A stretch of DNA of 52,137 bases from a virus (IMGVR_UViG_2778261534_000002); one strand, 5' to 3'. Shown: positions 8,652 through 48,537, numbered from the stretch's first letter. Numbers and translations: made by a program. Notes: a model not told the origin generated them from the letters alone.

Positions 8652-8666
8652 TTAAATTTCTAACAT
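8652..8666. promoter_or_regulatory. operator-like 15-bp motif
   Basis: TTAAATTTCTAACAT, member of recurrent family ATGTTAGAAAACTAA / TTAGTTTTCTAACAT. Confidence 0.4.
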
Positions 8667-8753
8667 AGTGTATTTATATACACTGTTGATCCTGGTGGAT
8701 GGGATCGAGTAGGATCGCGGTCACTGCTCCGGTAGCGACTGCCAAAAAAGCAA

Positions 8754-8777
8754 AAGCCGCTGAGAAGCGGCTTTTTG
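8754..8777 (+). terminator. rho-independent terminator
   Basis: AAGCCGC-tgagaa-GCGGCTT stem followed by TTTTT. Confidence 0.6.
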
Positions 8778-8838
8778 GGTGTATAAATCCACTGCCATAG
8801 ATTTATACGGTAGATAGATTTTTTCACGGAACTATCTG

Positions 8839-9801
8839 GTGAGTATTTTAAATTCAGTTTCAGTAACTTTCAACACTTCTGAGTATAAAAACAACACTGA
8901 ATACCACAAAAAAATCAAAGGTCATCAGTTGAGTTTTTTTGCTCGTCATAGCGGTCTTCTTTCCCCTTCACATAGCGCCATTATTGCCGAGTTCGCCAAC
9001 CTGGCAGGGTCTACCGATGAATACATGATCCGTCGCTCATATGCTGATATGTCCGAGATTACAGGACGCAGCATTTCTACTGTGCGCCGGGCATTTGCTG
9101 AAGCGACGAAGTGCGGAATGCTTGTTAAGCAACATCAGGTAGCGAATAACAATGCCCAGGTGTGTAACGTATATCGGTTTACGACACAATTTCTCCACTT
9201 CATTCATGTAGCAATGGAGATAGGGGGTAAGCAGGGCATCAAATTTGCCAACGCCACAAAGCTGGTTAAGCAGTTGATTTCAAAGGTTCGTTATTTTTTT
9301 GAAACTGGGAACCCCCTGTTCAAATTGAACAAGTCCCCCCATGTTCAAAATGAACAGCCAATAGAAAATAAGAGTCACTCTATAGCCAAAAGAAGAGAAA
9401 GATCATGCGCGGTTCAGCCAAAGGCTTCACCAGCAGATAGTACTCAAGCGGATAATGGGGGACTGGATAAAAAAACAGTAATCAGGGAAGAACATACCAA
9501 CCACTGCCTGGCGGCGGCAAAAGCGAGAGCTGCAAAGCGTCGTTCAGACGAGGGGCACGCAAAACGGCAGGCTCTGTATCGTACCGCTGAAAAGCTGGCA
9601 AAAAAATTTGCATGGATACGTAGTGCCGCTACCGCAGTGAATAAGCCTAAACAATCCAGTGCCCTGGATTTCTCAATGGATTATTCTGGCTCCCAGGGGT
9701 GTGTAACCATTGGTGAAGCCTTTGACCTGATGAAACAGCGTGGCTATCGGTCTGAATTTGACCGTGAGGATTGGTCAATCCCGGCGGGCTTTAGGGGATG
9801 A
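8839..9801 (+). CDS. RepL-like replication initiator (tentative)
   Basis: 320 aa (track start GTG); HTH-like N-terminal region, K/R-rich C-terminus; preceded by operator-like motif and palindromes; identification tentative. Confidence 0.35.
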   Translation: MSILNSVSVTFNTSEYKNNTEYHKKIKGHQLSFFARHSGLLSPSHSAIIAEFANLAGSTDEYMIRRSYADMSEITGRSISTVRRAFAEATKCGMLVKQHQVANNNAQVCNVYRFTTQFLHFIHVAMEIGGKQGIKFANATKLVKQLISKVRYFFETGNPLFKLNKSPHVQNEQPIENKSHSIAKRRERSCAVQPKASPADSTQADNGGLDKKTVIREEHTNHCLAAAKARAAKRRSDEGHAKRQALYRTAEKLAKKFAWIRSAATAVNKPKQSSALDFSMDYSGSQGCVTIGEAFDLMKQRGYRSEFDREDWSIPAGFRG

Positions 9802-9854
9802 CCTGTGTGTCTACAAAACATCCCAATGATCGGAAAATGCTCGCTCGATGATTT

Positions 9855-9898
9855 GTGTTAGAAAATTAATTTGCTGTTTCTAAATCGGAATGTATGAT
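9855..9898 (+). promoter_or_regulatory. operator-like motif overlapping sigma70-like promoter of immunity module 1
   Basis: GTGTTAGAAAATTAA (9855-9869) followed by -35 TTGCTG (9871-9876), 16-nt spacer, -10 TATGAT (9893-9898). Confidence 0.45.
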
Positions 9899-10084
9899 CT
9901 GCATCATCGACTGAAGTCATCCATTGCTGAAATTTTTAGTTGATCTTCCATGTTTTCAGGCTTATATTCATGCCGTCGTAGCAAATTCTGCGACCGGGTT
10001 TGACAGCCTGAATACTTACGCGGACAACCGCACATTTCCGATATTGCGGTATTTTTGTGTCCGTAAAACCACGTTACGCCCGAA

Positions 10085-10180
10085 TTATGGTGGGGCGTGA
10101 TGGGGAGGCTTCGGCCTGCTGGTTTCGTAAGTGCCAGTCTGTCAACCCTGTCACGTCCTGCCACCTGTTTGACAGCGGGT
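10085..10180 (+). ncRNA. c4-like antisense RNA candidate
   Basis: structured leader upstream of icd-like gene; TCGTAAGT (10125-10132) is complementary to ACTTACGA at the icd RBS (10197-10204); GGC-ttcg-GCC tetraloop hairpin; boundaries approximate. Confidence 0.3.
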
Positions 10181-10214: not shown

Positions 10215-10439
10215 ATGGTTAATGCCAATCCTTGCTCACGCCCAGAATTCATCTGGCGTTTCCACTCCCTGCAAAAACACTGCGATCACTTCGCAATTGC
10301 CGCAACCGAAAAAGAAGCCCGTTCTCTGATCCCTGATCAGTATGGTGTTCTTACTGGTCGTTTCTCTACTTCCCCACAACCAAACACTAATCCCTGGTAT
10401 CGCAATATTACCAATCCCGGAATTGCGGAGGCACACTGA
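10215..10439 (+). CDS. Icd-like small protein of immunity module 1
   Basis: 74 aa; paralog of 49339..49554 (shared EFIWRF and AATE-EARS motifs); stop overlaps ant start (TGATG). Confidence 0.5.
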   Translation: MVNANPCSRPEFIWRFHSLQKHCDHFAIAATEKEARSLIPDQYGVLTGRFSTSPQPNTNPWYRNITNPGIAEAH

Positions 10440-11146
10440 TGGAAATCTGCATTCTTGAAAAGCCATCAATGACCAGCATTGAGATCGCGGAGCTGGTGGG
10501 AAGTCGCCCGGATAACGTTAAACGCACTATTGAACGCTTGAGTAAATCAGGTGTTATTCCACTTCCTCCAATGGAGGTTTCCGAAAATATCAATAACTTA
10601 GGATTTAAAGTTAAAAATTCACACTACGTCTTCGAAGGCGAGCAAGGCAAGCGTGACAGTATCATTGTCGTTGCGCAGCTTTCTCCCGAATTTACCGCCC
10701 GGCTGGTGGACCGCTGGCGCGAACTGGAAGAACAAGTACGCCAGCCGTTGACCGAAATAGAGATGATCGCCGCAATGGCTGCAAATGCAGTTCAGCAGCA
10801 AAAGCGGCTTCATGTTGTTGAGTCAAAGGTTAGCCAGGTGGTAGAAACCGTCGAGCAAATCAAGAAGGGCAACATGCCAGATGGTTACATTGGCTACCGC
10901 CAGCTGGCTGCGAAATGTGGCCTGACCGAAGCCAAATGCCGCAACCTTGTCAACGCTTACCGGATTCCCACCGATACACATGAGTTTTTAACTCCAGAGG
11001 GGGTATTGTCGCGTCGTTCCATCGTGGCCTTATCTCCCTTCATGAATGCTTTTAACCGGATGATGTCGGAGGCTGAACACCGAGGAAAACGCTGGTATCA
11101 CCCCAAAATGGGGCAATTCCAGGTGATCGGTTGGGGAGGTGAGTGA
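10439..11146 (+). CDS. ant: antirepressor (Ant-like)
   Basis: 235 aa; N-terminal SIEIAELVG...PDNVKRTIE region typical of Rha/Ant-type phage regulators; paralog of 49554..50480; translationally coupled to icd-like gene. Confidence 0.55.
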   Translation: MEICILEKPSMTSIEIAELVGSRPDNVKRTIERLSKSGVIPLPPMEVSENINNLGFKVKNSHYVFEGEQGKRDSIIVVAQLSPEFTARLVDRWRELEEQVRQPLTEIEMIAAMAANAVQQQKRLHVVESKVSQVVETVEQIKKGNMPDGYIGYRQLAAKCGLTEAKCRNLVNAYRIPTDTHEFLTPEGVLSRRSIVALSPFMNAFNRMMSEAEHRGKRWYHPKMGQFQVIGWGGE

Positions 11147-11343: not shown

Positions 11344-11351
11344 AGCGTGAT

Positions 11352-11861: not shown

Positions 11862-12012
11862 ATTTTTCTCCCGGTCATGGGTTAATAAGTAGGCAAACTA
11901 TGGGGAGTATGTGATTTTGACGGTAGTATCGTCCCCCTGAAAATAACATTCTCCATACCCTCTCAACCGTACCGCATAGCGGAATTTTTTACGGTTTAGA
12001 GGGGGAAATCCT

Positions 12013-15000
12013 TTGGACAAACTACTTCATTCAATCAGTGAAGCCTCCAGCTTAGGCGAACTGATTGAAATTGTTAGTCGGTTGCATAAATTACGTGCTG
12101 TTGCGACCTTTGGCGTCAGGAAAGCCGATGGCGTCAGTATTCAGAAAACACGCCGGGCAGCAAACAATGCCGCAGTAAATCTTCTTAATTCCCTTCCGCC
12201 CGGCTTCGATGGGGCGAAATTAACTGACGAACAACGTCAGATTCTTGCTGGGTATACCGGTGAAGGCGGCCTGACAGATGGTGAGGGCAGCCAATACGAA
12301 TACTACACGCCACAGTTTATGGCTGAAGGTATATGGGATCTGTTTGCTGACTACGGTATTGATGGCGGGCACGTACTGGAACCATCAGCGGGCACAGGTA
12401 TTTTCCAGGAGACAAAACGGCAGGGCATGATAATGACCAGCGCGGAACTGTCTCCGATTTCTGGTCGAATAAACCAGCTTTTGCACCCGGAAGACGATGT
12501 GAATATCGGGGCGTTTGAGGCGCTGGCGGCGAAAGATGCAATGTATGACCACGCTGTTGGTAACGTACCGTTTGGTGAAGGGCGTTCCGGCGTTGCCGGG
12601 CTTGATCCGGCATATGCAAACGAGAAGAACGTTGGCAATTACTTTGTGCTGCGCACGATCGACAAGGTTAAGCCTGGTGGGCTTATCGTATTGGTGGTGC
12701 CAAATGGCATGACCGATGGTACGAAATATAAAAAATTGCGCGATAAAGTCAGCCGTAAAGCGGAATTTTTGGGCGCACATCGTATGCCTTCCGGTACGTT
12801 CAGCGAATCCGGTACAGATACCGTGGTGGACGTATGGGTATTGCGTAAACACCCGGAAACCTTCCTGGAGATGATCCCCGACACGGATGATTCAACACTC
12901 AAATCGGCAAACGTCCTTTGGGATACCTTCCTCAAAGGAAAATGGTTTACAACCGAAGGGAAGCGATTTGTTTACGGCGACATGGAACGTACCAGCTTCC
13001 GCAATACCTTGGTGGTGAAAAAAGACGGTCGTGTATCCAATGAGTCGATGAAAACCGCGCTATCTCGTCGCTTTGATAGTCGCATCAATTGGGATTTGCT
13101 CGGCGTAACTACTCAGGCATGGCAGGGCGCGAAAGTGGGCGATAAACGCCTTGTAGGCGGTATCTGGCATGAGTTTGATGGTCTGAAATGGGTTAAGGAC
13201 ACGACAACTAAATCCTCCGCGCTTGATGTAAGTCGATATGGTGTTTCGACGTTTGGCGATCTGCAGATCGCGTTCCAGTCAACAAACGGGATTCTGTCTT
13301 TGTCATGGGACCAGATATCGGCGATCGCGTCCGACTATCCATCGGTTGTCAGTGATGACGTGGCAGCAATGATTCGCTTTGCTGGCAAGCAGCGAGAAAA
13401 AGACAGGGAGCGCGTTATGCGCGGTGCGCTGATAGGTCAGTTGATCAACAAGGCACTTGATTTGCGTAACCTGGGTGTGAACGTTGATGACAAACTGGCA
13501 GATGCATCCCGCCTGGCGGCAGCAGAAGTTGCGAAGTATGGACCACCGCACGCCATTAAGCTGAATGGGCTTGCTGAAGCTGGCGCTAAAAACTGGATGA
13601 CGTTCACTGGCAATGTGAAACAGGATGGTTCCACTTCTGACCTTCTGGCAGGGCGACTTGATGTAACGGATGGTGCTGCCGGTATTGACTTTACACGTCC
13701 TGAACAAGTGATAGCACATCTTTTCAGTGATGTAGCCCTTAATCCTATAACGCTGGGAGACTTTCGTGAGGCGTTTGCTGGTGAACTGCCAGAGGACGAC
13801 GACGCGGCCCTTGAATACCTGGCGAAATTTGATGATATCGCTATTGATGGGTATGGCTGCCTGCTGCCGATGGACCGCGCCACCAGCGGCGATATTGCAA
13901 CCAAAACAGCATTGCTGATGGGCTGGCGTGATGCGTCAACAGGTGAGCAGAAAGCGAACTTTGAGCGTCAGTTGGCGAAAATCGAAGAGAAACGTATTTT
14001 CACGCCACTAAATAAAGTCACCGTTAATCTGAATGCCCGCTGGCTGGATCGCCGCTTGATAAAAGAGTTCCTGGCAGAGCAGGGCTATGACGAGTTTAAG
14101 TACACTGAACCTGATCTGAAGGTCGTCGATGGCATTCTGGTATCTCCGGACGATTACGAAGGTAAGGACGGGGTATTTACCGGCTATCAGCTACGAACCG
14201 TAAACGGCAAAAACGGGAATGAGTTCAAGAAGGCCAACAATAAAGACGGCTTCCTGAACCAGTTAGAAAACTACCTGAACGGTGTTAAACCGCGTGGGCA
14301 GAACGCTAACGAGTACCTGGATAAAATTGCTCAACTGGAAGTTAGTTTTAACGACTGGTTACGCACTCACCCGCAGGCTGATCAGATAGCCCGCGAGTAT
14401 AACGACGCATTCAATGGTTTCATTCCGTTCACGCATTCTGACGCACCGCTTGGCCTGGAAGGGCTTAGTGGAAAGCGCATTCCTCTTACTTATCAGAATG
14501 AAGAAGTTCGGCGCTTGTCAGAAGATGGGCGCGGCATCATGGGATTTGGTACCGGGCTGGGTAAAACCACGACCGCGCTTGCGCTTGAGGCGTATAACTT
14601 CGAAACAGGTCGCACTAAACGCACGTGTATTGTTGTTCCGAAGGCGGTTTATCAGAACTGGTATCACGAGGCACAGAGTTTCTACAGTGCTGATGCCTTT
14701 GCCAATATGATGTTTATCGGTTTGGATGAAGTTCGTGATGACAGCGGAAATATTCTGACCGCGCCGGTGCTTGATGAAAATGGCGAACCACGCCTCGACA
14801 GTAACGGGCAGCCTCTTACCAGAAATGTTGTGAAAGAGTCCGCCAGCGCCGTTATCGTTCAGCGCATGAACATGATCCCGTCGTCAAATTGGCGAACGGT
14901 CATCATGACAAAAGAACAATTCGCGTCTATCCCGCTACGAGAAAAAACCATCGAGGAGAACTCACAGCAAGCTGTCTTTAATGCTGTGGAAATGGGGCGT

Positions 15001-19322: not shown

Positions 19323-19583
19323 ATGCGAAAGAATCGTAGGTTTACGGTCGAAGACCTAAAGGAATATTCCATATCGAAGGGGTATATCCTTGAGTTCCAC
19401 CGATACAAGAAGGTTTTTACGCTGCGAAAAGCAGAAAACCCTGCGAACTGGAGCTGGATATACTTTCCTCACACCGATGATAAGTTGGTAGAACTTGTTG
19501 ATGATTTAACCTATGAAGGTTGGTTGATCGCAATCGACAAGACAATCAAAGAATTATCCGAACAGGATAAAATAACCCTTTAA
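19323..19583 (+). CDS. hypothetical protein
   Basis: 86-aa ORF, 2 nt after preceding stop; followed by hairpin. Confidence 0.4.
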   Translation: MRKNRRFTVEDLKEYSISKGYILEFHRYKKVFTLRKAENPANWSWIYFPHTDDKLVELVDDLTYEGWLIAIDKTIKELSEQDKITL

Positions 19584-19625: not shown

Positions 19626-19756
19626 TTGATTAAGGTCACTCTTTACTCTAAAAGCAAATCCGACCTGTTGCATATAGACCATCCTTGAGTAGTATCTCTC
19701 TTGTTTTACAAATCTAACGTTGTTGTTATTATTTCGCATATTTACTATCAATGGGT

Positions 19757-19771
19757 GTGTTAGAAAATAGC
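19757..19771. promoter_or_regulatory. operator-like 15-bp motif
   Basis: GTGTTAGAAAATAGC. Confidence 0.35.
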
Positions 19772-19904
19772 GCGAAAGAGAAGGCGTCGCAGTGAATATT
19801 CTGAAACATCCCCACATGCCGCAGCTCTTAGAGAACTGGAGAAAAACCCAGATCTAATCAAAAGGAACCATGAGCATTACGAGCAGGTTCGCGTCCTGGA
19901 CTGG

Positions 19905-20213
19905 TTGTATCGCAATATGCGTTATGTGTATGAGCATACTCACGCCACTCCAAACGGTGGCCTGCGAGGCATAAGGACGGCAATAAAAATGGTGGCAGAG
20001 GGCCAAAAGAAGGGATATCCCGATCTTTCTATAGACCTTGCTTGTGGGGGATACCACGGAATGCGCATTGAGATGAAACATGGGAGAAATCGCCTGACTC
20101 CCGAACAACTCGTCTGGATGACCCGCCTCACTGAAGCCGGTTACTACTGCTTTGAGGCGCGCAGTGCCGCTGAAGCCATAAAAGCTATCACGGAGTATGT
20201 TTGTCTTGATTAA
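19905..20213 (+). CDS. VRR-NUC domain nuclease
   Basis: 102 aa; GYPDLSIDL...EMK arrangement typical of VRR-NUC (PD-(D/E)xK) proteins. Confidence 0.6.
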   Translation: MYRNMRYVYEHTHATPNGGLRGIRTAIKMVAEGQKKGYPDLSIDLACGGYHGMRIEMKHGRNRLTPEQLVWMTRLTEAGYYCFEARSAAEAIKAITEYVCLD

Positions 20214-20758: not shown

Positions 20759-20798
20759 TTTATTGCATCTTCCGGTACCGCCATCAAACTAATAAAAT

Positions 20799-20813
20799 AT
20801 GTTAGAAAACTAA
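20799..20813. promoter_or_regulatory. operator-like 15-bp motif (consensus copy)
   Basis: ATGTTAGAAAACTAA, identical 15-mer also at 42923 and as reverse complement at 31428 and 48523. Confidence 0.45.
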
Positions 20814-20822
20814 TTTAACAAA

Positions 20823-22046: not shown

Positions 22047-22047
22047 T

Positions 22048-22062
22048 GTGTTAGAAATCTAA
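22048..22062. promoter_or_regulatory. operator-like 15-bp motif
   Basis: GTGTTAGAAATCTAA. Confidence 0.35.
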
Positions 22063-22203
22063 AATCACAATTCGAATGTATTGATTGTGGAGATAACTTA
22101 ACATAGAATTTTCCTTGCTGGTGGGCAGTACCCACGTTTCGCTTGCTGGGCTTGATAGTCACTTATTGGTTATTGTTCGCCCACCAGCATTTAACAAATT
22201 AAA

Positions 22204-22218
22204 GTGTTAGAAAAGGAT
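22204..22218. promoter_or_regulatory. operator-like 15-bp motif
   Basis: GTGTTAGAAAAGGAT. Confidence 0.35.
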
Positions 22219-22699
22219 GGTAATGCAAGAGCACGCTTTGGCACCGTGCAGGCCAAAGTTCAGCAGGTTTAGTGCGGAAAGTGGTTTCAGAGAGAGCACT
22301 TTGCGGAGTAAACGACAATACATGTTGAGCCACGGAAGGTCTTTTTAAGGTGTTCATTGATGATGGTCCGGCAGAGAGTAACGGTACATGCTGCATCTAA
22401 TCATCAATGCACATCTTCAACATTAAGGAGGCATAGGGATTTTTGTGGCGGTTACCTTTTGCCCTGAGTCTCCTTAATGTTGCGGTAATGCACCTATGCG
22501 GATGTGGCCTTGCATTGTGTCTTGAAAGAATGGGGTAAGGCCGGGGATATCCCCAGGGGGAGGCACCCCCGCTGCAACGAACAGCCACAGACGGCAGTCG
22601 AGTGATGGAAACGTGTAAAGACTTTAAACCTCGTTACGGCTGGCGTGGCAAACGCGACAACCGAGACAGAGCGGTGACGGGCGGAGAGAGTGCCGCATC

Positions 22700-23280: not shown

Positions 23281-23357
23281 GATGGTGTAGCTCAGTAGGA
23301 TAGAGCAGCAGCCTTCTAAGCTGTCGGTCGGTGGTTCGAATCCACCCACCATCGCCA
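23281..23357 (+). tRNA. tRNA-Arg (anticodon UCU)
   Basis: 77 nt; 7-bp acceptor stem GATGGTG/CACCATC, anticodon loop CTTCTAA, T-loop GGTTCGAATCC, 3' CCA. Confidence 0.9.
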
Positions 23358-23362
23358 ATTTA

Positions 23363-23449
23363 GGGGAGTTAGTCCGTAGGGGTAGCGGGGTAGACTGTAA
23401 ATCTACTGTCATTGCGACTCGGGTGGTTCGACTCCATCACTCCCCACCA
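23363..23449 (+). tRNA. tRNA-Tyr (anticodon GUA), long variable arm
   Basis: 87 nt; acceptor GGGGAGT/ACTCCCC, anticodon arm GTAGA-CTGTAAA-TCTAC, variable-arm stem GTC/GAC, 3' CCA; D-arm atypical. Confidence 0.7.
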
Positions 23450-23453
23450 AATT

Positions 23454-23529
23454 GCCGGTTTAGCTCAGTTGGTAGAGCGCCTGCCTTGTAAGCAGGATGT
23501 CAGCGGTTCGAGTCCGTTAACCGGCACCA
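23454..23529 (+). tRNA. tRNA-Thr (anticodon UGU)
   Basis: 76 nt; TAGCTCAGTTGGTAGAGC D-arm, anticodon loop CTTGTAA, T-loop GGTTCGAGTCC, 3' CCA. Confidence 0.9.
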
Positions 23530-24281: not shown

Positions 24282-24518
24282 ATGCAGAACAATCCGAACA
24301 AATGTCGAACGCTATGGGTGCGGTTATATATTTATGTCGTCCTCTGTTTGATTGTGTCACTGGTTCTGTATGTTTGGCTTTTGCCAAATATGATCTCATC
24401 TGACAGCACAATACTTGTATTGTTGGGAGTCCTTCTCGCGCTCATTTACCCGGCTTTTGCAGTAGTCTTTTTTCGTGAAAAAACCAGGAAATTGATTAAT
24501 GAAAAAAACGTTGATTAG
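24282..24518 (+). CDS. small integral membrane protein
   Basis: 78 aa, two hydrophobic helices, SD GGAGTGAGAGG before ATG; overlaps start of the SPFH lipoprotein gene. Confidence 0.45.
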   Translation: MQNNPNKCRTLWVRLYIYVVLCLIVSLVLYVWLLPNMISSDSTILVLLGVLLALIYPAFAVVFFREKTRKLINEKNVD

Positions 24519-25480: not shown

Positions 25481-25556
25481 GGCCCTTTAGCTCAGTGGTT
25501 AGAGCTGGCGACTCATAATCGCACGGTCACCGGTTCAAGTCCGGTAGGGGCCACCA
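25481..25556 (+). tRNA. tRNA-Ile2 (anticodon CAU, lysidine type) or tRNA-Met
   Basis: 76 nt; very close to E. coli ileX-type sequence as recalled (GGCCC.TTAGCTCAGTGGTTAGAGC...CTCATAA...GGTTCAAGTCC...GGGGCCACCA). Confidence 0.85.
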
Positions 25557-26586: not shown

Positions 26587-26978
26587 TGTACGGGACTACC
26601 AAATTAAGCACTCAACAGGCCACCAATATGGAGTGGTCTATCGCTAACTGTAAGATCGTGTCATGCAATGCCACGCGTACTGATGTGGGCCATAAAAGCA
26701 CTATAACAGGCTATCTAGTAATGACCACCAGGGGGATGAGGGTTAGATTTCGCTGGAAAGCAGAGCAAGTAACGCCATTCAGAGAGCCATCAATGCCGCT
26801 GCAGGTTGAGCAGGATTATCTATGTTTACCAGAAATAGATGGAGGAATGCTGGTGGAGTCTGATGGTAGTAAGGCTGATTTTGAAGCCAATTTGAAGCTG
26901 GCACAGGCCGTAATCAATAGTTATCGCGGAAAGTGGATCGCAAAAGTGAAACATGTTGTTCGTTTGTCTCGCTGGTAG
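26586..26978 (+). CDS. hypothetical protein
   Basis: 130-aa ORF whose start overlaps the preceding stop; no recognizable motif. Confidence 0.4.
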   Translation: MYGTTKLSTQQATNMEWSIANCKIVSCNATRTDVGHKSTITGYLVMTTRGMRVRFRWKAEQVTPFREPSMPLQVEQDYLCLPEIDGGMLVESDGSKADFEANLKLAQAVINSYRGKWIAKVKHVVRLSRW

Positions 26979-27086
26979 TATTAGGTGTTTAATATTAATT
27001 TTCTAATACAATCATCTTTTTACCAGTCTATACAGTTTTAACATTCTCATTATCATCCCCTCGGTCATTTCCTGCCCGGGGGATTA

Positions 27087-30375: not shown

Positions 30376-31413
30376 TTACCAGAGCTTCGCGGCGTACTGC
30401 GTTTGGGGGAATGTGTATCCGTAACGTTCTTCGATTGCTTTGCCGTATTTTTTACGAGCTTCATTCAGTTTAATGCCGGTCAGGTCGTCTCCAGAGGCCA
30501 TCATTACGTCTAACAATTCCAGATCCATTTTATCCAGCCTTGCCATTGCTTCACGTGATGTACGTATCTTACGCTCAATGATATGGCGAATAGCCGGATC
30601 GGCATCCTCCAGCATCTTAGCGGATTTCTGCTTAAGGCTTTCATTGCGAATATCGATGTTCCTTAAGATGTACGACTTCGCAACGTAGCTTGGCTGGTGT
30701 TTTTCCAGGTCACGAACACGATATAAGTTAAAATCGCCGAGAAGGCTGCAAGGTACCGATTCGACGCCAGAATAAATTGTAATGCTCCGGCGTTCACCAA
30801 CATTATTGACAACGGGGATCGTTGTCTTCGGTAGTCTTGCGAAAACCAATGCGCCATGTGCGCCAACTCTAAAGCGAGAAAGGGCATTGCTGCCTTCGAT
30901 GTTTGTTGTCAGCACAACATCTGTATATGCCTCTTTACGCGCCCGGTAGATCTCGCCTTCAGGCTCAGCTTCAAAGAAGCGCTGTTCTTCTTCAAGAGCA
31001 CCTACAATTTGAGAAAAAACCCTATTTTTCAGGCTTTTCTTTATGATTTTGTCGTATTTTTTGAGCAATTGTTCACGTGTAAATGTACGTGTTGTTGTAG
31101 CGCTTTGCACAACAACATGCGTGCTTTGATTGGTGTCCTCAATGATGAATGGGATCGGAGAATATACAGACTCAACAATGTTCGACGCTTTGCCGTCGGC
31201 ATCGCGGCACATGTCAACGAAGGCTTTCCATTCAGCAAGACATTTTTCAGCTTCTTCTAATATGTTTTGGTCATGCGTTAATGCAACATGGCGGAATTCC
31301 TCGCCAGCATAACTGGTATCATGGAAAACAGAGTTTGCGACCACCAGCTCTTTCCACCGTTCAGCGGTTTGCAGGAACCGTTTGTACTCTTTCTCGATCG
31401 ACTTCTTACTCAT
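30376..31413 (-). CDS. c1-locus protein, candidate immunity regulator of unknown family
   Basis: 345 aa at the position of c1/coi in P1 (between pacB and the lox-equivalent site); no similarity to P1 C1 as I recall it; operator-like motif 15-29 nt upstream of its start. Confidence 0.5.
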   Translation of the reverse strand: MSKKSIEKEYKRFLQTAERWKELVVANSVFHDTSYAGEEFRHVALTHDQNILEEAEKCLAEWKAFVDMCRDADGKASNIVESVYSPIPFIIEDTNQSTHVVVQSATTTRTFTREQLLKKYDKIIKKSLKNRVFSQIVGALEEEQRFFEAEPEGEIYRARKEAYTDVVLTTNIEGSNALSRFRVGAHGALVFARLPKTTIPVVNNVGERRSITIYSGVESVPCSLLGDFNLYRVRDLEKHQPSYVAKSYILRNIDIRNESLKQKSAKMLEDADPAIRHIIERKIRTSREAMARLDKMDLELLDVMMASGDDLTGIKLNEARKKYGKAIEERYGYTFPQTQYAAKLW

Positions 31414-31427
31414 TATTCCTACTCGAT

Positions 31428-31442
31428 TTAGTTTTCTAACAT
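31428..31442. promoter_or_regulatory. operator-like 15-bp motif (consensus copy)
   Basis: TTAGTTTTCTAACAT, reverse complement of ATGTTAGAAAACTAA; just upstream of the c1-locus gene. Confidence 0.45.
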
Positions 31443-31513
31443 AAAATTACTATGACAAATTTATGTCGAATAACAGAGTGAGTAAAGGATCGAACTGTGA
31501 TTTTTTGTCATCA

Positions 31514-31528
31514 ATTTTAGAAAACCAA
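31514..31528. promoter_or_regulatory. operator-like motif (near match)
   Basis: ATTTTAGAAAACCAA, 12 of 14 positions match the consensus. Confidence 0.3.
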
Positions 31529-31623
31529 CTGTATAAACCACACTTCGCAAATTAAAGACCATGAAGGCAACGTGTTACTGGTCAAAATCAATCTATGATG
31601 GATTAAAAAAAATCGCCATTTTG

Positions 31624-31807: not shown

Positions 31808-32836
31808 ATGAGTGAATTAATTATCTCTGGCAGCTCCAGTGGTTTTCTGCGCAACATTGGCAAAGAGTACCAGGAGGCCGCAGAAAACTTTATGCGGTTC
31901 ATGAATGACCAGGGGGCTTACGCGCCTAATACTTTGCGCGATCTCCGGTTAGTGTTTCACTCCTGGGCGAGATGGTGTCACGCTCGCCAGCTCGCCTGGT
32001 TCCCGATCTCTCCAGAGATGGCCCGCGAGTATTTTCTTCAGCTGCATGATGCTGATCTGGCTTCGACCACCATTGATAAGCACTACGCCATGCTGAACAT
32101 GCTGCTTTCGCATTGTGGCCTTCCGCCACTTTCGGATGATAAAAGTGTTTCTCTGGCTATGCGGCGCATCCGGCGTGAAGCGGCAACGGAAAAAGGCGAA
32201 CGAACAGGCCAGGCTATACCGCTGCGGTGGGACGATCTGAAACTGCTCGACGTCCTGTTGTCCAGGTCAGAACGGCTGGTGGACCTGCGCAACCGGGCTT
32301 TTCTCTTTGTTGCATACAATACGCTGATGCGCATGTCTGAAATCTCGCGTATTCGTGTAGGAGATCTGGACCAAACAGGTGACACTGTCACGCTACATAT
32401 TTCACACACGAAGACAATAACGACCGCCGCCGGGCTTGATAAGGTGCTTTCCCGTCGCACTACTGCTGTGCTGAATGACTGGCTGGATGTTTCCGGGCTT
32501 CGTGAACATCCTGACGCGGTGCTGTTCCCGCCGATACACCGTAGCAATAAGGCCAGGATTACGACAACGCCCCTTACTGCACCTGCAATGGAGAAAATAT
32601 TTAGTGACGCCTGGGTGTTGCTGAATAAAAGAGATGCCACTCCAAACAAGGGGAGATACCGGACGTGGACCGGGCATAGTGCTCGTGTCGGGGCTGCTAT
32701 CGATATGGCAGAAAAGCAGGTGTCTATGGTGGAGATCATGCAGGAAGGAACCTGGAAGAAACCGGAAACACTTATGCGGTATCTGCGCCGTGGCGGCGTG
32801 TCTGTGGGGGCTAATAGCCGCCTGATGGATTCATAA
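31808..32836 (+). CDS. dre: Cre-family tyrosine recombinase (Dre-type)
   Basis: 342 aa; Cre-like blocks WFPISPEMAREYFL, VSLAMRRIRRE, RNRAFLFVAYNTLMRMSEISRIRVGDL, WTGHSARVGAAIDMA; adjacent rox site. Confidence 0.9.
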   Translation: MSELIISGSSSGFLRNIGKEYQEAAENFMRFMNDQGAYAPNTLRDLRLVFHSWARWCHARQLAWFPISPEMAREYFLQLHDADLASTTIDKHYAMLNMLLSHCGLPPLSDDKSVSLAMRRIRREAATEKGERTGQAIPLRWDDLKLLDVLLSRSERLVDLRNRAFLFVAYNTLMRMSEISRIRVGDLDQTGDTVTLHISHTKTITTAAGLDKVLSRRTTAVLNDWLDVSGLREHPDAVLFPPIHRSNKARITTTPLTAPAMEKIFSDAWVLLNKRDATPNKGRYRTWTGHSARVGAAIDMAEKQVSMVEIMQEGTWKKPETLMRYLRRGGVSVGANSRLMDS

Positions 32837-32851
32837 ATTAAATTTCTAACA
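32837..32851. promoter_or_regulatory. operator-like 15-bp motif
   Basis: TTAAATTTCTAACAC directly after the dre stop codon. Confidence 0.35.
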
Positions 32852-32909
32852 CATCTTTTTAGATTGTTATCTTTGCTGTAAAGTACCCTCGCCTATTTCG
32901 GAGGGTGCT

Positions 32910-41885: not shown

Positions 41886-42881
41886 TCAGTTATTGAAAGT
41901 GATCACTCCGCGCTCGATGGCGAAGTCAAAAAGCTGGTTAGCGGCTACGTAAAGGCGTATGCCATGTGCTTTTTCCCATGCCCGGACATCGTTTTCTGCG
42001 CTTCTGGCGCAGTCATCGCAAAGAGGAACAGCCCAGCGGTCGTGTTCGTTTAACGAGCGGGCGCGGTACATGAACGGGTGGTTAACTTTGCCACCGCATC
42101 CGATGCACGGACGAGAAACCACAAACCGGAGATAAGCCGGGCTTTTACCGAGGACCGCTTTTGGTCGGCGCATATAAAGCAGGCCGGAATCCTCATCTAC
42201 AGACAGGTTGACGATCTGCTCTGCGGTTATGTCCACCAGCTCGCGGGTACTGTGCTCCCAGGTGATATCTGATTCTTTCAGCGTACCGGTAGGGATTTCA
42301 GTTTTTGGCTGACAAAATGCAATGCGACCGGCTTCATCTGGTAGCTCATCTTTCAGATTCCGGCGAATGGCCCAAAAAGTGAGTTCAACCATGCTCAGAT
42401 CGCGTTCTGGCGGTAGTTTTAACTCGCTCGCAGCCCAGTTCATAACCCAGTTGGCACGATTCAGGGATAACTGGTCGTCCAACTTGCTGTACCCCTTCAT
42501 CATGTATTCCGCATCATGCTTCCAGCACAGGCGAACGGCAGAGCCGTTATAGAAATGAGTGGTTAGCTGGTGGCTGCAATCGCGCTTATCGTGCGCCTGG
42601 CAATCGTGGATATTGGAACTTACCCAATGAACAAGCGAATCTTCACCGCCCAACGCGTTAAATACGCGCTCGCTTTGAAAAAACGGTTTCAGAGACTGGT
42701 TGGCAACCAGCGAATAATTCAGATCCACTACGCCATCTGGCGTGTTTTCAGCCTGTTCACGCGGAAGTGGGGAGATAATGAAACGGCGACCTGCGCCAAT
42801 GTAGTTACTGGTGGGCTTGTCTACCGGAAAGACAGCCACACCAGCTCCGTTTACGAAATGAGGTGTGATTATTGCACTCAT
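41886..42881 (-). CDS. hypothetical protein with C-terminal zinc-ribbon-like motif
   Basis: 331 aa; CIGCGG ... CDDC cysteine pairs near C-terminus; operator-like motif 40-75 nt upstream. Confidence 0.5.
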   Translation of the reverse strand: MSAIITPHFVNGAGVAVFPVDKPTSNYIGAGRRFIISPLPREQAENTPDGVVDLNYSLVANQSLKPFFQSERVFNALGGEDSLVHWVSSNIHDCQAHDKRDCSHQLTTHFYNGSAVRLCWKHDAEYMMKGYSKLDDQLSLNRANWVMNWAASELKLPPERDLSMVELTFWAIRRNLKDELPDEAGRIAFCQPKTEIPTGTLKESDITWEHSTRELVDITAEQIVNLSVDEDSGLLYMRRPKAVLGKSPAYLRFVVSRPCIGCGGKVNHPFMYRARSLNEHDRWAVPLCDDCARSAENDVRAWEKAHGIRLYVAANQLFDFAIERGVITFNN

Positions 42882-42922
42882 AATGTATACCGACTCTGTT
42901 TTGTTCCGAGCGGTAAAATAAT

Positions 42923-42953
42923 ATGTTAGAAAACTAAAATCAATGTTCTAACA
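42923..42953. promoter_or_regulatory. operator-like motif pair
   Basis: ATGTTAGAAAACTAA (42923-42937) plus partial inverted copy TGTTCTAACA (42944-42953). Confidence 0.45.
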
Positions 42954-42978
42954 AATTTTGAGTGCGTAAATGATTTGA

Positions 42979-43701
42979 TCAGACTTTAAGCTGCCCTCCC
43001 TTCACCTGCATTAGCGTCAGATTTCCGCAAAAAACCGCGCCCGTGTCTATGTAGTGCTGATTCCAGTATGCTTTTGGTCTTCGTACCGGTGTGTGCCCAA
43101 AGATAAAGCGATCTGCGCCTGTGATTTCTCCACCAATGCCATCTATCGAATCACCGACGCGACTGCGCGACCAGACAACATCAAAAAGCGACACATCCTT
43201 ACCGAACTGGTACTCTCCACCTGGATAGTCGGCATGGGCTATAACGATAGTTTCATGCCCGGTGTTCAACTCAATGATATATGGCAGACGCTTTACCAGC
43301 TCCACCAGCGCCTTGGCTAATATTTCCTGATCAGTGTCCAGCATGAAGAACCATTGTCCGCCATTCATTAGCCAGTTATTCACGTTGCCATCAGGACTTA
43401 ACGCATCAAGCATCAACCGCTCATGGTTCCCCATTACTGCCCTGAACCAGGGCATCTGCAATAGTTCCAGACATTCGACATTTTCAGTACCGCGATCGAT
43501 AAGGTCGCCAACCGATATCAGTAAATCCTGCGCCGGGTCAAAATCCACACGATGGAGTTCGGACATCAGTCTGGTGTAGCAACCATGCAGATCACCAACA
43601 ACCCATATGTTTCTGTAGCCAGAACCATCAATACGGCTATATAAATTCACTTCATGCATAGCCTGGATCATGCGGCAACCTTCTCCCGCAGCCAGATACA
43701 A
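42979..43701 (-). CDS. Ser/Thr protein phosphatase (calcineurin-like metallophosphoesterase)
   Basis: 240-aa ORF; GDLHG, GDLIDRG and GNHE metal-binding motifs in the order seen in lambda-type phosphatases. Confidence 0.8.
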
Positions 43702-46242: not shown

Positions 46243-46748
46243 TGGATGACTCCTTTACGAAGCTGTTCGGCGATATCTTCGAGAACGCCATCAGAGAATG
46301 AGCGGTCAAAATCGCCTTCCGGCGCATTAGCCATAAACTCAGTAGAGGTAAGAATCATCCGGGCAATATCCGCGGCGTTCTTCGCAGTATCATCAATAAA
46401 ACCAGCTACCCAGGCAGCCAGCATTCTGTTCGCCACAAAGTAAGCGCCCTCCTTGCGTGCTTCAGTCTTCACTTCATCCAGGAAAGTGTCGGTCGCAGGA
46501 GTAGTTTTTTGTGGTGATAGGGCGATACGAATTGTTTCAAGAGCTGGATCTATTTCCACTGTTGGCACCTTGATAAAACCAAGCTGCACGCCATTCATAA
46601 TGAACGTGCGGCGATCCTCACATATCGCCTTCAGTCTCGCATTCTCCGCAGCCAGCGCCGCGCGCTCTTTCTCAAGTCGGGAAATTTCCGTTACATACTC
46701 AGCGTTACGCTCTGCCAGTTGTGCGGGCGTTAAACCTTCAGACTTCAT
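46239..46748 (-). CDS. coiled-coil paralog C (Ea22-like family)
   Basis: 169 aa; coiled coil and C-terminal block TPATDTFLDEVKTEARKEG ... EQLRKG. Confidence 0.5.
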   Translation of the reverse strand: MKSEGLTPAQLAERNAEYVTEISRLEKERAALAAENARLKAICEDRRTFIMNGVQLGFIKVPTVEIDPALETIRIALSPQKTTPATDTFLDEVKTEARKEGAYFVANRMLAAWVAGFIDDTAKNAADIARMILTSTEFMANAPEGDFDRSFSDGVLEDIAEQLRKGVIQ

Positions 46749-47055
46749 ACACTCTCCTTTCGAAATAAACGTACTGATTAATCATGCCCAGGGGCATTTC
46801 GAGTTTTTCCGCGATCTCACGGCGGGGAACACCACACTGATGAAGCTGCCGTGCCAGTTCTATATCGCTCTGCCGGTATTTGGCTGACGGATGAAAGTCT
46901 CCTTTCAGAATCATGCTGATCCCCAACTCCCGCGCTTTAGTCCTGACGGCATCACCGGTACGACCGATCAGCTTCCCAATACTCTCGACCGTCATAGTTC
47001 CGGCGCACTGGCGGAGTATCATGATTTCTGCCCTTCCCCATCCCCGCCAGCTCAC
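46738..47055 (-). CDS. HTH DNA-binding protein
   Basis: 105 aa; two helix-turn-helix-like segments (TVESIGKLIGRTGDAVRTKAREL; VPRREIAEKLEMPLG). Confidence 0.45.
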   Translation of the reverse strand: MSWRGWGRAEIMILRQCAGTMTVESIGKLIGRTGDAVRTKARELGISMILKGDFHPSAKYRQSDIELARQLHQCGVPRREIAEKLEMPLGMINQYVYFERRVYEV

Positions 47056-47678
47056 GCCGACATCCTCTGAGACATAAACTCCACAAAACGAACTGCATCT
47101 TCAGAAACAACGCCGCATGACTTCAGATAATTCATTGCGTCATTAGGTAGCGGATTAGTTGGTTCGGCATTTGCCAGGGATTGAGATAAACGCGTGATTA
47201 ATTTGACCATTCTCCGCTGCCGGAGGTTGTATCCTTCAGCTAAAGACAGGTAACTGGAAAGGGTATTGCTTAAGCGGGCGCGAAGCTGATCCGTGCCGTG
47301 ACATTCAATAGCAACATCACGTAATGCATCGACCAGTTCACGGTAAAGATGCGCTGCCATTCTGCAATCTGTGTCAGATGGTGCTTCATAAATTACCGTC
47401 AACCCCAGTTTTTCAGCCAGAGCGTGTTCTGCACGTGCTCCTGCGGACACATCCCATCCCTTAAGCAGATAGATCGCATCAGCAGAACGCACCATTGCCA
47501 GACAAATATCCATGTATTCGCTCTGGCAGAGGCCAGCAGGTAACAGCGCCGGATTCAGAACAATATGCCCTTCCTCCATCAGCTCTTTTGCTTTCGAAAA
47601 AAACGCTGTGCGGTTGTAGTCGGGATAACCAGTCATCGGCCCCGCGATGTAAATTTTCAAAACACATCTCACCATCAA
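47052..47678 (-). CDS. DUF4406-like (nucleoside 2-deoxyribosyltransferase-like) protein
   Basis: 208 aa; N-terminal IYIAGPMTGYPDYN ... LLKGWDVSAGARAEHALAEKLG resembles the nucleoside 2-deoxyribosyltransferase-like fold; extra C-terminal domain; first gene of leftward operon. Confidence 0.45.
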   Translation of the reverse strand: MMVRCVLKIYIAGPMTGYPDYNRTAFFSKAKELMEEGHIVLNPALLPAGLCQSEYMDICLAMVRSADAIYLLKGWDVSAGARAEHALAEKLGLTVIYEAPSDTDCRMAAHLYRELVDALRDVAIECHGTDQLRARLSNTLSSYLSLAEGYNLRQRRMVKLITRLSQSLANAEPTNPLPNDAMNYLKSCGVVSEDAVRFVEFMSQRMSA

Positions 47679-47868
47679 AATTTCCCCAGCATCGTGACGA
47701 AAAACATCAGCACGGCAAAAAGCTCAATACCTAATTCAAGTAGCGCCAACGCCCCGAAAAAAAACACATAGAACAGGCCAATCTCATTCACAGATGGCTG
47801 GTGGATCGCACTTAAAGCTATAAGCATCATGTCCTCCAAACATTTATCAGTGATGATATTAATGTTTT

Positions 47869-47883
47869 GTGTTAGAAAATCAA
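47869..47883. promoter_or_regulatory. operator-like 15-bp motif in divergent promoter region
   Basis: GTGTTAGAAAATCAA with partial inverted partner TATCTAACC 10 nt downstream. Confidence 0.4.
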
Positions 47884-47947
47884 TTTTGAATATCTAACCA
47901 TTTTGATCAATCATAGAAAAATCGTTGAAAAGTAAGAGACTGCCATC

Positions 47948-48526
47948 ATGCAGAAACAGAGTTATTGGGAGAAACAGAGACAAAAAGCCATGCAAAAATT
48001 GGCTGACCCGGCCTGGCGAGAGGAACAAAGGGCAAAGCGCCTTCAACAAGCTCAACGCCAGCAGCAGCGAGCGAGAGAAAAAGCCGCATCGCCTGAATAT
48101 CGGCAAAAGAAAATTGAAAAAGCAAAACAATATGAACAGCGGAGAAAAGATAAATCTGTATCCGCTCCGCCCAAAAAAACACGCACGTCACGCGGCCTGA
48201 AGGGCAGATCACTCACAGCCGATGAACGCCGGATACAGACCGCTATCGGTACTCTCCCCTGCATTGCCTGCCATATTCACGGGCAACATAGCCCAGTGGT
48301 ATCCCTGCACCATATCTTCGGGAGAACGGCAGAGAACGCGCATAAATATGTCCTCCCTTTGTGTAAATGGCACCACCAGTACGCAGCGCCAGCCGAGGTC
48401 CGAGACCAATATCCCTGGCTGGTCCCTGTTCATGCTGATGGAAAAATAGGCGGAAAAGCAGATTTCATGCGGCACAATGCCGATGAAATGACGTTGTATC
48501 TGATGGCGATTGAATTGATAAATTAG
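47948..48526 (+). CDS. Ref-like HNH endonuclease
   Basis: 192 aa; K/R/Q-rich low-complexity N-terminal 80 aa followed by Cys/His motifs CIACHIHG ... LHHIFG ... CKWHHQ, the architecture described for P1 Ref. Confidence 0.5.
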   Translation: MQKQSYWEKQRQKAMQKLADPAWREEQRAKRLQQAQRQQQRAREKAASPEYRQKKIEKAKQYEQRRKDKSVSAPPKKTRTSRGLKGRSLTADERRIQTAIGTLPCIACHIHGQHSPVVSLHHIFGRTAENAHKYVLPLCKWHHQYAAPAEVRDQYPWLVPVHADGKIGGKADFMRHNADEMTLYLMAIELIN

Positions 48527-48537
48527 TTTTCTAACAT
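48523..48537. promoter_or_regulatory. operator-like 15-bp motif (consensus copy)
   Basis: TTAGTTTTCTAACAT overlapping the ref-like stop; followed by -35 TTGAAT / -10 TACATT-like promoter. Confidence 0.4.

Follow-up and report, generated by a model that had tools for sequence, protein, structure and literature searches.

A dispersed 19-bp motif in a D6-like plasmid prophage as a putative C1-type operator set

Introduction

Does a short motif that recurs in front of early-type genes in a relative of phage P1 mark the regulon of a repressor, and, if so, which protein would bind it? The element considered here is a viral stretch of 52,137 nucleotides (IMGVR_UViG_2778261534_000002; hereafter the window, meaning the whole stretch that was analysed). 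It is a D6-like P1 relative with 99.9% identity to E. coli and Salmonella plasmids of about 92 kb. In P1, RepL and Lpa are under the control of the C1 repressor, which binds 22 asymmetric operators of 17 bp at dispersed positions (PMC8546580). A preliminary description of the window had proposed a C1-like repressor regulon of different specificity, and enrichment, placement, conservation and co-variation of the motif support this reading, with binding by C1 itself being what we infer from them. Very probably, the motif serves as operator for the C1-family master repressor that the element itself encodes, an assignment made by analogy with P1 and from co-variation; repression upon binding is presumed on the same grounds. 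The gene concerned is:

30376..31413, minus strand: c1, for a 345-aa C1 repressor of the D6 type that presumably binds the motif

Results

The motif and its enrichment

The exact 15-mer ATGTTAGAAAACTAA is present in four copies in the window (20799 and 42923 on the plus strand, 31428 and 48523 on the minus strand), as had been described, and in none of 100 dinucleotide shuffles. With up to three mismatches, there were 12 matches in the window against 1.6 expected (maximum 6), and 11 against 0.41 expected (maximum 4) when only non-coding DNA was considered. The control for the latter consisted of 300 per-segment dinucleotide shuffles of the 6.7 kb of non-coding DNA (43% GC); the motif is thus far more frequent than AT-rich intergenic DNA would yield by itself. 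The core TGTTAGAAA was found 11 times in non-coding DNA against 0.08 expected, and all 11 copies in the window are non-coding, although such DNA makes up 11.5% of it, which bears out the intergenic placement reported earlier. In full, the motif reads T[AG]TGTTAGAAA[AT][CT]TAA(T)TT, an asymmetric sequence of 19 bp that is represented by a 19-bp matrix. It has 11 strong and 4-5 weak copies, all of them non-coding, and the enrichment holds in the comparison with randomised sequence that the preliminary description had suggested. Some sites have a weak inverted partner, always offset by 15 bp (42937-42955, 47883-47901 and 26977-26995). One further three-mismatch match, at 14260 inside darB, is probably due to chance.

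Most of the near-matches listed earlier stand, namely those at 8652(-), 9855(+), 22048(+), 31514(+) and 47869(+), while those given as 32837 and 26996 are shifted by 1 bp, to 32838(-) and 26995(-). The ones at 19757 and 22204 are present, but they retain only the 5' core GTGTTAGAAAA.

The c1 gene and its upstream region

The c1 product shares 21% identity with P1 C1 over 240 aa (E 2e-8) and carries the precomputed Pfam assignment PF27008 (Phage_P7_repressor_C1); neither an HTH match nor a Pfam family besides PF27008 was found in it. The gene, annotated as "phage repressor protein" in CP057832.1, is placed between pacB and rox/dre, that is, beside a lox/cre-type recombination module and the pac genes. 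The circuit differs from that of P1, since counterparts of Coi and Lxc were not found: the longest ORF between c1 and rox has at most 33 aa, and the ORF after ulx, in the position of lxc, has no similarity to Lxc. An independent report likewise found lxc to be absent from a D6-like plasmid (PMC6799933). Four features lie around the upstream region of c1 and dre:

31458..31486, minus strand: predicted c1 promoter, -35 TTTACT (31486-31481), 17-bp spacer, -10 TAAATT (31463-31458), score 12.0
31425..31443, minus strand: putative autoregulatory operator, exact 15-mer, 27.2 bits, counterpart of P1 Oc1ab
31513..31531, plus strand: second putative operator, in the c1-rox-dre intergenic region, 19.8 bits, counterpart of P1 Oc1c-e
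32835..32853, minus strand: putative operator over the dre stop codon, upstream of the orf117-dut operon, 29.1 bits

The first operator falls between the predicted start of c1 transcription and the c1 RBS and ends 11 nt before the ATG. When the c1 upstream region was compared among relatives, the conserved islands were the -35, the -10 and both operators; the two hexamers are conserved across relatives with C1 proteins 44-100% identical, and the core of the second operator, TTTTCTAA/TTAGAAAA, is kept in all clades while its flanks have diverged. A site at c1 -30 is shared by all 32 relatives from IMG/VR and by L006, a distant relative, and the site over the dre stop codon is kept at c1 -1430 in all relatives.

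Sites at replication, antirepressor and ref loci

Further sites at early loci were assigned as follows, together with the RNAs downstream of them:

8649..8667, minus strand: putative operator between pro and repL, in the position of P1 OrepL, 27.9 bits, fully non-coding
9854..9872, plus strand: putative operator upstream of c4-icd-ant module 1, 30.4 bits
9962-10014: c4-a1b1, downstream of the preceding site
10083-10168: C4 RNA of module 1, also downstream of that site
42922..42955: putative divalent operator between ppp and pdcB, two convergent 19-mers offset by 15 bp, 28.7 and 15.1 bits
47868..47901: putative operator with weak inverted partner in the divergent orf88/ref promoter region, in the position of P1 Oref, 28.5 and 7.5 bits
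48520..48538, minus strand: putative operator over the ref stop codon, upstream of the isrK-C4-icd-ant module 2, exact 15-mer, 28.9 bits
49074-49152: isrK of module 2
49197-49284: C4 of module 2

D6 also carries the site between pro and repL, at 22465. The site before module 1 had been said to overlap a good sigma70 promoter; it does overlap the -35 of TTTGCT-17-TATGAT, by 3 bp, but this predicted promoter is a moderate one. Position and 3-bp overlap are the same at Oc4/P2c4 of P1, and P1 Omat overlaps the ref stop codon just as the site before module 2 does. The latter also overlaps the -10 (TAACAT) of a predicted promoter with a score of 11.0. Between ppp and pdcB, the divalent site covers the -35 and spacer of a predicted leftward promoter (TTGATT-17-TATTTT, score 12.3), and predicted promoters on both strands overlap the orf88/ref site.

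Sites at pmgM/pmgS, the tRNA cluster and lpa

The remaining sites and the features beside them are these:

19702..19720, plus strand: weak operator-like site upstream of pmgM, 14.6 bits
19756..19774, plus strand: degenerate site upstream of pmgM, with only the 5' core TGTGTTAGAAAA kept
20798..20816, plus strand: putative operator directly upstream of pmgS, exact 15-mer, 31.0 bits (compare P1 OpmgRa/b)
22047..22065, plus strand: putative operator just past the pmgS stop, 27.2 bits (compare P1 Oban)
22081-22109: strong predicted promoter TTGATT-17-TAGAAT downstream of the preceding site, score 13.8
22203..22221, plus strand: degenerate core-only site AGTGTTAGAAAAGGA
23281-23526: tRNA cluster, downstream of the site at 22047..22065
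26977..27010: putative lpa operator, counterpart of P1 Olpa, with a strong half at 26992-27010(-), 26.1 bits, and a weak inverted partner at 26977-26995(+), 6.4 bits
27087-27479: lpa

The weak site before pmgM overlaps a predicted promoter (TTTACA-16-TATTAT). Both degenerate sites have better-preserved syntenic counterparts: that of 19756..19774 is a full operator where C1 is about 80% identical (e.g., TGTGTTAGAAATTTAATGC), and that of 22203..22221 reaches 18-19 bits in relatives. The weak partner at lpa similarly rises to 16-22 bits in the clade with about 80% identical C1. The preliminary description had called the lpa match weak; it is the putative lpa operator and so a key node of the cascade. 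The site directly upstream of pmgS is kept in relatives. The sites had also been described as preceding early-type rather than structural genes. They do lie before early, immunity and late-activator genes, but the exclusion of structural genes needs qualifying, given the strong site in front of the putative scaffold gene pmgS; in P1, too, C1 operators precede pmgR/pmgS. Of the 11 strong sites, 8 overlap core elements of a predicted promoter facing the downstream gene, with the proviso that such predictions are noisy in AT-rich spacers.

Specificity and co-variation with C1

Placement and specificity were assessed against P1. The sites match annotated, experimentally derived P1 C1 operators site by site at nine or more loci, and the mirrored distribution noted earlier extends over the positions of Oc1ab, Oc1e, OrepL, Oc4, Oref, Omat, OpmgR, Oban and Olpa. 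In D6, a divalent site outside the window precedes hrdC-dmt, in the position of P1 Odmt. The difference in specificity proposed earlier also proved correct, as the motif is absent from P1 (no match at >=12 bits when the P1 genome was scanned with the D6-type matrix) and the window has no P1-type operator set. The P1 consensus ATTGCTCTAATAAATTT gave one three-mismatch match in the window (0.18 expected), itself a D6-type half-site. Judged by these scans, the window operators are a specificity class different from P1/P7.

In relatives with 70-100% identical C1, the motif and its syntenic positions are both retained. Where C1 is 44-51% identical, the 5' core TGTTAGAAAA is kept and the 3' part is changed, and in a genome with C1 about 33% identical (L044), the syntenic positions carry another motif, GATNCAAAATCTAA. 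The motif, being kept with close C1 proteins and changed with distant ones, therefore co-varies with C1. Among close relatives, footprinting has little force, as the flanks of the sites are themselves 86-92% conserved.

Discussion

It is improbable that the motif is bound by a regulator other than C1, either a phage protein (small HTH-like, Rha/antirepressor) or a host nucleoid or DNA-binding protein. In favour of such a regulator, the tie of C1 to the sites is one of analogy and co-variation, and the window encodes other putative DNA-binding proteins, such as a small HTH-like protein at 46738-47022. However, nine or more loci agree with the map of P1 C1 operators, every relative has the site at c1 -30, and even a short distant contig containing c1, lpa and pac (L008) still has sites. 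Moreover, the motif shifts as C1 diverges, when a host factor would stay constant.

We consider it very unlikely that the motif is a shared promoter element acting without a repressor (a UP-element-like AT tract or a TAACAT -10) or a chance AT-rich repeat. The sites are AT-rich, and the reverse complement of the motif includes TAACAT, the predicted -10 at 48532-48537. Yet the location relative to predicted promoters varies (-35, spacer, -10 or past the start) and both orientations occur, which points to an operator and not to a fixed promoter element. Enrichment that survives dinucleotide shuffling of intergenic DNA, and 19 bp of specific sequence kept across relatives while flanks diverge, also speak against it.

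There is scant reason to see in the motif a part of Lpa-dependent late promoters, active only late, even though one site precedes the putative scaffold gene pmgS and a late-box-like sequence follows the site at 22047. In such promoters, which precede lysis or morphogenesis operons, a -10 without a -35 is combined with a conserved box some 22 bp ahead of the start. The motif bears no relation to the P1 late box, AAGTGACTT-N4-(-10), and a search for AAGTGACTT in the window found none. A candidate D6-type late box, AAATCACAWACTG, does occur there before lydA, ddrB, prt and a lysis-type hydrolase gene, and in D6 also before R, mat, pmgB, gene 7 and the major capsid gene. This candidate box is found in the upstream regions of late operons, and its positions lack the TGTTAGAAAA motif, except upstream of the D6 capsid gene (motif site 54201). 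The motif, which instead precedes lpa and c1 themselves, is distinct from both boxes, contrary to what late, Lpa-dependent activity would predict; it does not belong to this promoter class. The late-box-like sequence following the site at 22047..22065 reads AAATCACAATTCG.

Hardly credible, finally, is the idea that the sites are Ter-like sites for host Tus, forming replication fork barriers on the plasmid: the operator and TerB have TATGTT...AACTAA in common and the C1 model resembles Tus, but 17% of shuffles score equally against TerB (p about 0.17, not significant), the Ter core GTTGTAAC is interrupted in the operators, no Ter-like site was found in the window at <=3 mismatches, and promoter-proximal placement and co-variation with C1 would be unexpected for host Tus. 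The likeness of the proteins is a matter of its own. An AF2 model of C1, built on a 9-sequence alignment (pLDDT 78.8, pTM 0.46), matched only Tus in the PDB, with TM-scores of just 0.32-0.41, and had no match in BFVD; on this model, a fold like that of the replication terminator protein is tentatively predicted. By sequence, C1 does not qualify as a Pfam Ter member: the best E-value for PF05472 was 0.012, in 2 of 66 C1-family members and below the cut-off, HMM comparison with Tus gave only weak collinear matches, and hhalign probabilities of 8-9.5% were not significant.

A regulon of the P1 C1 type is most likely what the motif represents, and is the kind expected for a D6-like plasmid prophage. 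In the plasmid-prophage state, C1 would occupy some 11 strong sites and 4-5 weak ones, all of them at or next to promoters of the sigma-70 type. Its binding would keep off lytic replication (repL), both c4-icd-antirepressor modules, ref, the divergent orf88-to-ppp operon, pdcB, the operon after dre, pmgM/pmgS and the tRNA operon. It would also hold lpa off, blocking the late gene cascade at the lpa operator, so that late genes would be silent for lack of their activator. The c1 gene would be negatively autoregulated through the site between transcription start and RBS and a second one about 90 bp upstream. Most operators appear to be monovalent, and three or four would be divalent (34 bp), with a weaker convergent partner at a 15-bp offset, a mix that parallels that of P1, with its 28-bp divalent operators.

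Among known systems, Tus-Ter of E. coli (23-bp sites) is alike in having an asymmetric site of about 20 bp and in that Tus acts as a monomer. P1 C1 also acts on its operator as a monomer. The distance from the end of TerB to the tus ATG is 11 nt, as it is from the end of the c1 operator to the c1 start codon, and Tus is autoregulated through TerB (PMC8707476). Unlike Tus, C1 is a presumed transcription repressor with many promoter-proximal sites and is not known to arrest replication forks. Lambdoid CI/Cro immunity likewise keeps lysogeny by repressing early promoters and involves autoregulation, but its repressors are dimeric HTH proteins with palindromic operators at one locus, whereas the sites here are asymmetric and dispersed genome-wide.

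The closest counterpart is ImmC of P1/P7 (Op2, Op51, Op53, Op72, Op86, Op94, Op99 and others), whose repressor is homologous (PF27008). The two share an asymmetric 17-19 bp operator in about 15-22 copies across a plasmid prophage of about 92 kb, the coexistence of monovalent and convergent divalent operators, and the targets (c1 autoregulation, repL, c4-icd-ant, ref, pmgR/S, the tRNA operon, lpa and dmt). They differ in the operator itself, ATTGCTCTAATAAATTT in P1/P7 and TRTGTTAGAAAWYTAATTT here, with a common core of at most TCTAA(Y)A in reverse orientation, and in the offset within divalent sites (11 bp in P1, 15 bp here). Unlike P1, the element has no coi, imcA/B or recognisable lxc; it has two c4-icd-ant modules where P1 has one, and its C1 carries a C-terminal extension of about 100 residues relative to P1 C1.

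Probable operators of a C1-type repressor

The motif that recurs ahead of the early-type genes very probably represents the operators of the element's own C1, a P1-C1-type master repressor which, we infer, would bind and repress there. The preliminary description had proposed a repressor regulon, and this interpretation is supported by a P1-like placement of the sites, by co-variation of the motif with C1, and by its distinctness from late boxes. By similarity, the element belongs among the D6-like plasmid prophages of the P1 family. A 16-kb query matched Escherichia phage D6 with 98% identity over 77% of its length; identity to plasmids of about 92 kb from E. coli and Salmonella (e.g., CP057832.1) was 99.9%, and 50 plasmid records each covered at least 80% of a 24-kb query. 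Neither D6 GenBank record carries operator or promoter annotation. The genes and RNAs (the latter from Rfam) are as follows.

7640-8638, pro
8839-9801, repL
9962-10014, c4-a1b1 element, upstream of the first C4
10083-10168, first C4 antisense RNA
10215-11146, icd/ant module 1
12013-18849, darB
end at 20724, pmgR
20838-22046, pmgS
27087-27479, lpa (late-gene activator)
27476-30348, pacA and pacB
30376-31413 (-), c1
31808-32836, dre
41886-42881 (-), pdcB
42979-43671 (-), ppp
47948-48526, ref
49074-49152, isrK-like RNA, upstream of the second C4
49197-49284, second C4 antisense RNA
49339-50480, icd/ant module 2

Several other features were recorded. Where the window departs from D6, there are tRNA genes (a cluster of three at 23281-23526 and one at 25481-25553). 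An SPFH-domain gene lies at 24499-25326. A Tad2-like (Thoeris anti-defence 2) domain (E 1e-9), also recorded in relatives, was detected in the ORF at 26011-26586(+) (D6 orf6), two genes before lpa. The Chi octamer GCTGGTGG has 32 sites in the window (e.g., 8024, 10492, 18099, and 34605) against 1.6 expected, and it is among the commonest 9-mers of L006 and L007, two distant relatives.

Frequency and extent of the motif

Four exact copies of the recurrent 15-mer ATGTTAGAAAACTAA were confirmed, at 20799(+), 42923(+), 31428(-), and 48523(-), compared with none in 100 dinucleotide shuffles, and every near-match that had been listed was found. With up to three mismatches, the whole window gave 12 matches against 1.6 expected (shuffle maximum 6). 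At 19757 and 22204, the 5' core alone is kept, and a match within darB, at 14260, is probably due to chance. Alignment of 11 sites extended the conserved block to 19 bp, T[AG]TGTTAGAAA[AT][CT]TAA(T)TT, which is asymmetric. The weight matrix built from these sites gave 13 matches of at least 14 bits against 0.29 expected, a figure that is partly circular because 11 of the 13 are training sites.

A sharper control is the one confined to non-coding DNA (6.7 kb, 43% GC), shuffled segment by segment in 300 rounds: 11 matches with up to three mismatches were present against 0.41 expected, and no round exceeded 4. Under segment-wise shuffling of non-coding DNA, the core TGTTAGAAA was expected 0.08 times and occurs 11 times; all 11 window copies are non-coding, although such DNA makes up 11.5% of the window. 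Because the enrichment holds in the non-coding-only shuffle, the suggestion that the motif is no more frequent than AT-rich intergenic DNA would give fails.

Placement of the sites

The P1 operators and their targets were taken from the annotated P1 record. That the layout mirrors the C1 operators of P1, as had been proposed, is borne out site by site.

31425-31443, between the predicted c1 start and the c1 ribosome-binding site; P1 counterpart Oc1ab
31513-31531, rox/dre side; P1 counterpart Oc1c-e
8649-8667, upstream of repL; P1 counterpart OrepL
9854-9872, upstream of c4 module 1; P1 counterpart Oc4
48520-48538, upstream of c4 module 2, over the ref stop codon; P1 counterparts Oc4 and Omat (also over the ref stop)
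47868-47886, ref and divergent operon; P1 counterpart Oref
20798-20816, with weak sites at 19702 and 19756, pmgS and pmgM; P1 counterpart OpmgRa/b
22047-22065, ahead of a strong predicted promoter and the tRNA cluster; P1 counterpart Oban (heads the tRNA-tciA-ban operon)
26992-27010, upstream of lpa; P1 counterpart Olpa

Elsewhere in D6, beyond the window, hrdC-dmt is preceded by a divalent site, in the position of P1 Odmt, and another separates the major capsid gene from orf52. The sites occur in both orientations relative to predicted promoters. By promoter predictions that are noisy, eight of the 11 strong sites appear to overlap part of a promoter facing the downstream gene, be it the -35, the spacer, the -10, or the start region. 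For example, the 9854 operator overlaps by 3 bp the -35 of a predicted promoter (TTTGCT-17-TATGAT), with a stronger promoter 70 bp downstream, a layout matching Oc4/P2c4/P1c4 of P1.

A second, weaker copy in convergent orientation accompanies three or four of the sites, always offset by 15 bp; such partners lie at 42937 (15.1 bits), 47883 (7.5 bits), and 26977 (6.4 bits), against a background 99.9th percentile of -1.4 bits. Both the lpa site and the one after pmgS are plainly divalent in relatives whose C1 is about 80% identical. P1 also has monovalent and divalent operators, but its divalent operators are 28 bp long with an 11-bp offset.

The annotated start of pmgM varies, the one in the D6 record lying about 200 bp before that assigned by PGAP in CP057832.1 (19917). 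With the longer pmgM (19720-19917 region), a predicted promoter and the weak sites at 19702 and 19756 would fall within the coding sequence or at its edge; the short start fits the regulatory reading better.

Separation from late promoters

A motif in front of promoters could instead mark late promoters that depend on an Lpa-like activator, a possibility named in the preliminary description. In the annotated record, P1 late promoters consist of a box, AAGTGACTT, followed by 4 nt and the -10; this box is unrelated to the motif, and the window lacks the pattern AAGTGACTT-N4-(-10). A de novo search of D6 late-operon upstream regions returned a separate box, AAATCACA[A/T]ACTG, followed by a -10-like hexamer, which in D6 precedes R, mat, prt, lydA, pmgB, gene 7, and the capsid gene. 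Distinct from the P1 late box and placed in front of lysis and head genes, this candidate box is presumably where Lpa acts in D6-like phages. The window holds four copies.

666-678 (+), lydA
4444-4456 (+), ddrB
5891-5903 (+), prt
11905-11917 (-), hydrolase gene

None of the four coincides with the TGTTAGAAAA motif. Because the late-type boxes are separate from the motif, its reading as a late promoter was rejected. A late-box-like sequence directly follows the window site at 22047, and likewise D6 site 54201 (capsid-gene upstream region); these two could be under dual control, as annotated for P1 mat. Another candidate late element, ACTAAGTTAGT upstream of lydA, was rejected as not recurrent.

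Co-variation of the motif with C1

The window C1 (345 aa) has a precomputed assignment to Pfam PF27008, Phage_P7_repressor_C1, and aligns with P1 C1 (283 aa) at 21% identity over 240 residues (E 2e-8), the D6 type having about 100 additional C-terminal residues. PF27008 is a small family, with 83 representatives at 50% identity in a set of 1.84 billion proteins, and a scan of GTDB representative genomes for D6-type C1 found no relative. Across the relatives, the motif changes with C1.

Operator motifs by identity of C1 to that of the window
C1 70-100% identical (32 IMG/VR loci): motif unchanged; c1 -30, c1 -118, after dre, before lpa, after and before pmgS
C1 44-51% identical (L006-L008): 5' core TGTTAGAAAA kept, 3' part altered
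C1 about 33% identical (L044, an IMG/VR contig): D6 motif absent; (AGATTGTN)GATNCAAAATCTAA after the recombinase gene, before c1 and lpa, after and before pmgS
P1 C1, 21% identical: operator ATTGCTCTAATAAATTT; no match to the D6 matrix

The motif is assigned to C1 since a host factor would not change with C1 and Lpa presumably has a separate box. In L044, the third operator type lies at 7602, 8502, 9832, 14629, 16493, 16649, and 17948, in D6-syntenic places. Its 3' half (AAAATCTAA) is like that of the D6 motif and its 5' half is different, while L006 shows the opposite, a 5' core shared with the D6 type and a different 3' part; the two patterns hint at two recognition modules. The P1 consensus at three mismatches has one match in the window, itself a D6-type half-site. 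The proposed difference in specificity from P1 thus stands, with no P1 match to the D6 matrix and no P1-type set in the window, and the one half-site match suggests that P1 and D6 share at most a short core, TCTAA(Y)A.

When c1 upstream regions from all clades were aligned, the conserved islands were the -35 TTTACT, the -10 TAAATT, and both operators. Footprinting among close relatives told little, their flanks being conserved almost to the same degree as the sites.

Predicted resemblance of C1 to Tus

An AlphaFold2 model of the window C1 (9-sequence alignment, mean pLDDT 78.8, pTM 0.46) gave four Foldseek matches in the PDB at E <= 1e-3, all of them E. coli Tus (E 6.7e-7 to 2.2e-5, probability 1.00, 273-306 aligned columns, TM only 0.32-0.41); a fold search of BFVD gave no match. 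At the sequence level, hhalign of a 66-member C1 profile against Tus gave Prob 8-9.5% and E 0.003-0.004, pairing C1 86-186 with Tus 146-258. Among 24,736 Pfam families at lax thresholds, Ter (PF05472) was the one matched by the largest number of C1 members, 2 of 66 (best E 0.012), and unfiltered HMM searches gave tiny collinear Tus matches in about 15 diverse C1 members. A PDB sequence search with the C1 profile returned nothing relevant. The Tus homologues found were all at least 81% identical, too close for a deep Tus profile. Profile comparisons stayed weak. This sequence-level support for kinship is weak, and it points in the same direction as the fold match.

Tus binds its asymmetric 23-bp Ter site as a monomer. 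It autoregulates via TerB in its own promoter (PMC8707476), and tus has been described as a recent domestication of a plasmid gene (PMC6549158). K-12 TerB (AATAAGTATGTTGTAACTAAAGT) ends 11 nt before the tus ATG, and the c1 operator likewise ends 11 nt ahead of the ATG of its own gene. The resemblance of operator and TerB (TATGTT...AACTAA) is not significant, being equalled by 17% of shuffles, so a Ter-like operator is unsupported; the window has no Ter-like sites at up to three mismatches. No paper linking Tus with C1 was found in the literature search.

Going by the modelled fold, the P1/D6-type C1 proteins (PF27008) may be remote structural homologues of Tus, and C1-operator the phage-plasmid counterpart of Tus-Ter, a tentative reading to which we give slightly less than even weight. 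If true, it would account for a C1 without a recognisable DNA-binding motif and for asymmetric operators, point to a mobile-element source for Tus, bearing on the open question of its origin, and prompt the question of whether a C1-operator complex blocks replication or helicases in a polar manner. Such a fold, if it holds, would tie together two classic systems.

Comparison with the P1 circuit

The circuit differs from that of P1 in several respects. Neither coi nor imc genes can be placed between c1 and rox, where every ORF is at most 33 aa long. No similarity to Lxc was detected in the ORF following ulx, the position of lxc in P1, and an earlier report likewise detected no lxc in a D6-like plasmid (PMC6799933). 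This ORF, 19323-19583(+), adjoins ulx, encodes 86 aa where P1 lxc has 82 aa, and has no Pfam match; it could be a positional analogue of lxc. There are two c4-icd-antirepressor modules in the window, each with its own operator.

Among the papers searched, none contained TTAGAAAACTAA or mentioned D6 operators; the D6 genome paper (Gilcrease & Casjens 2018) may already describe the regulon. For the D6-like phage-plasmids widespread among E. coli and Salmonella, the outcome is an operator consensus and a map of the regulon, from which their immunity groups, induction, and superinfection exclusion become predictable. This set of sites is the D6-type equivalent of the familiar C1 regulon of P1, and the P1, D6, L006, and L044 types, which differ in motif but share the positions of their sites, form a natural series for specificity change of a monomer-type repressor.
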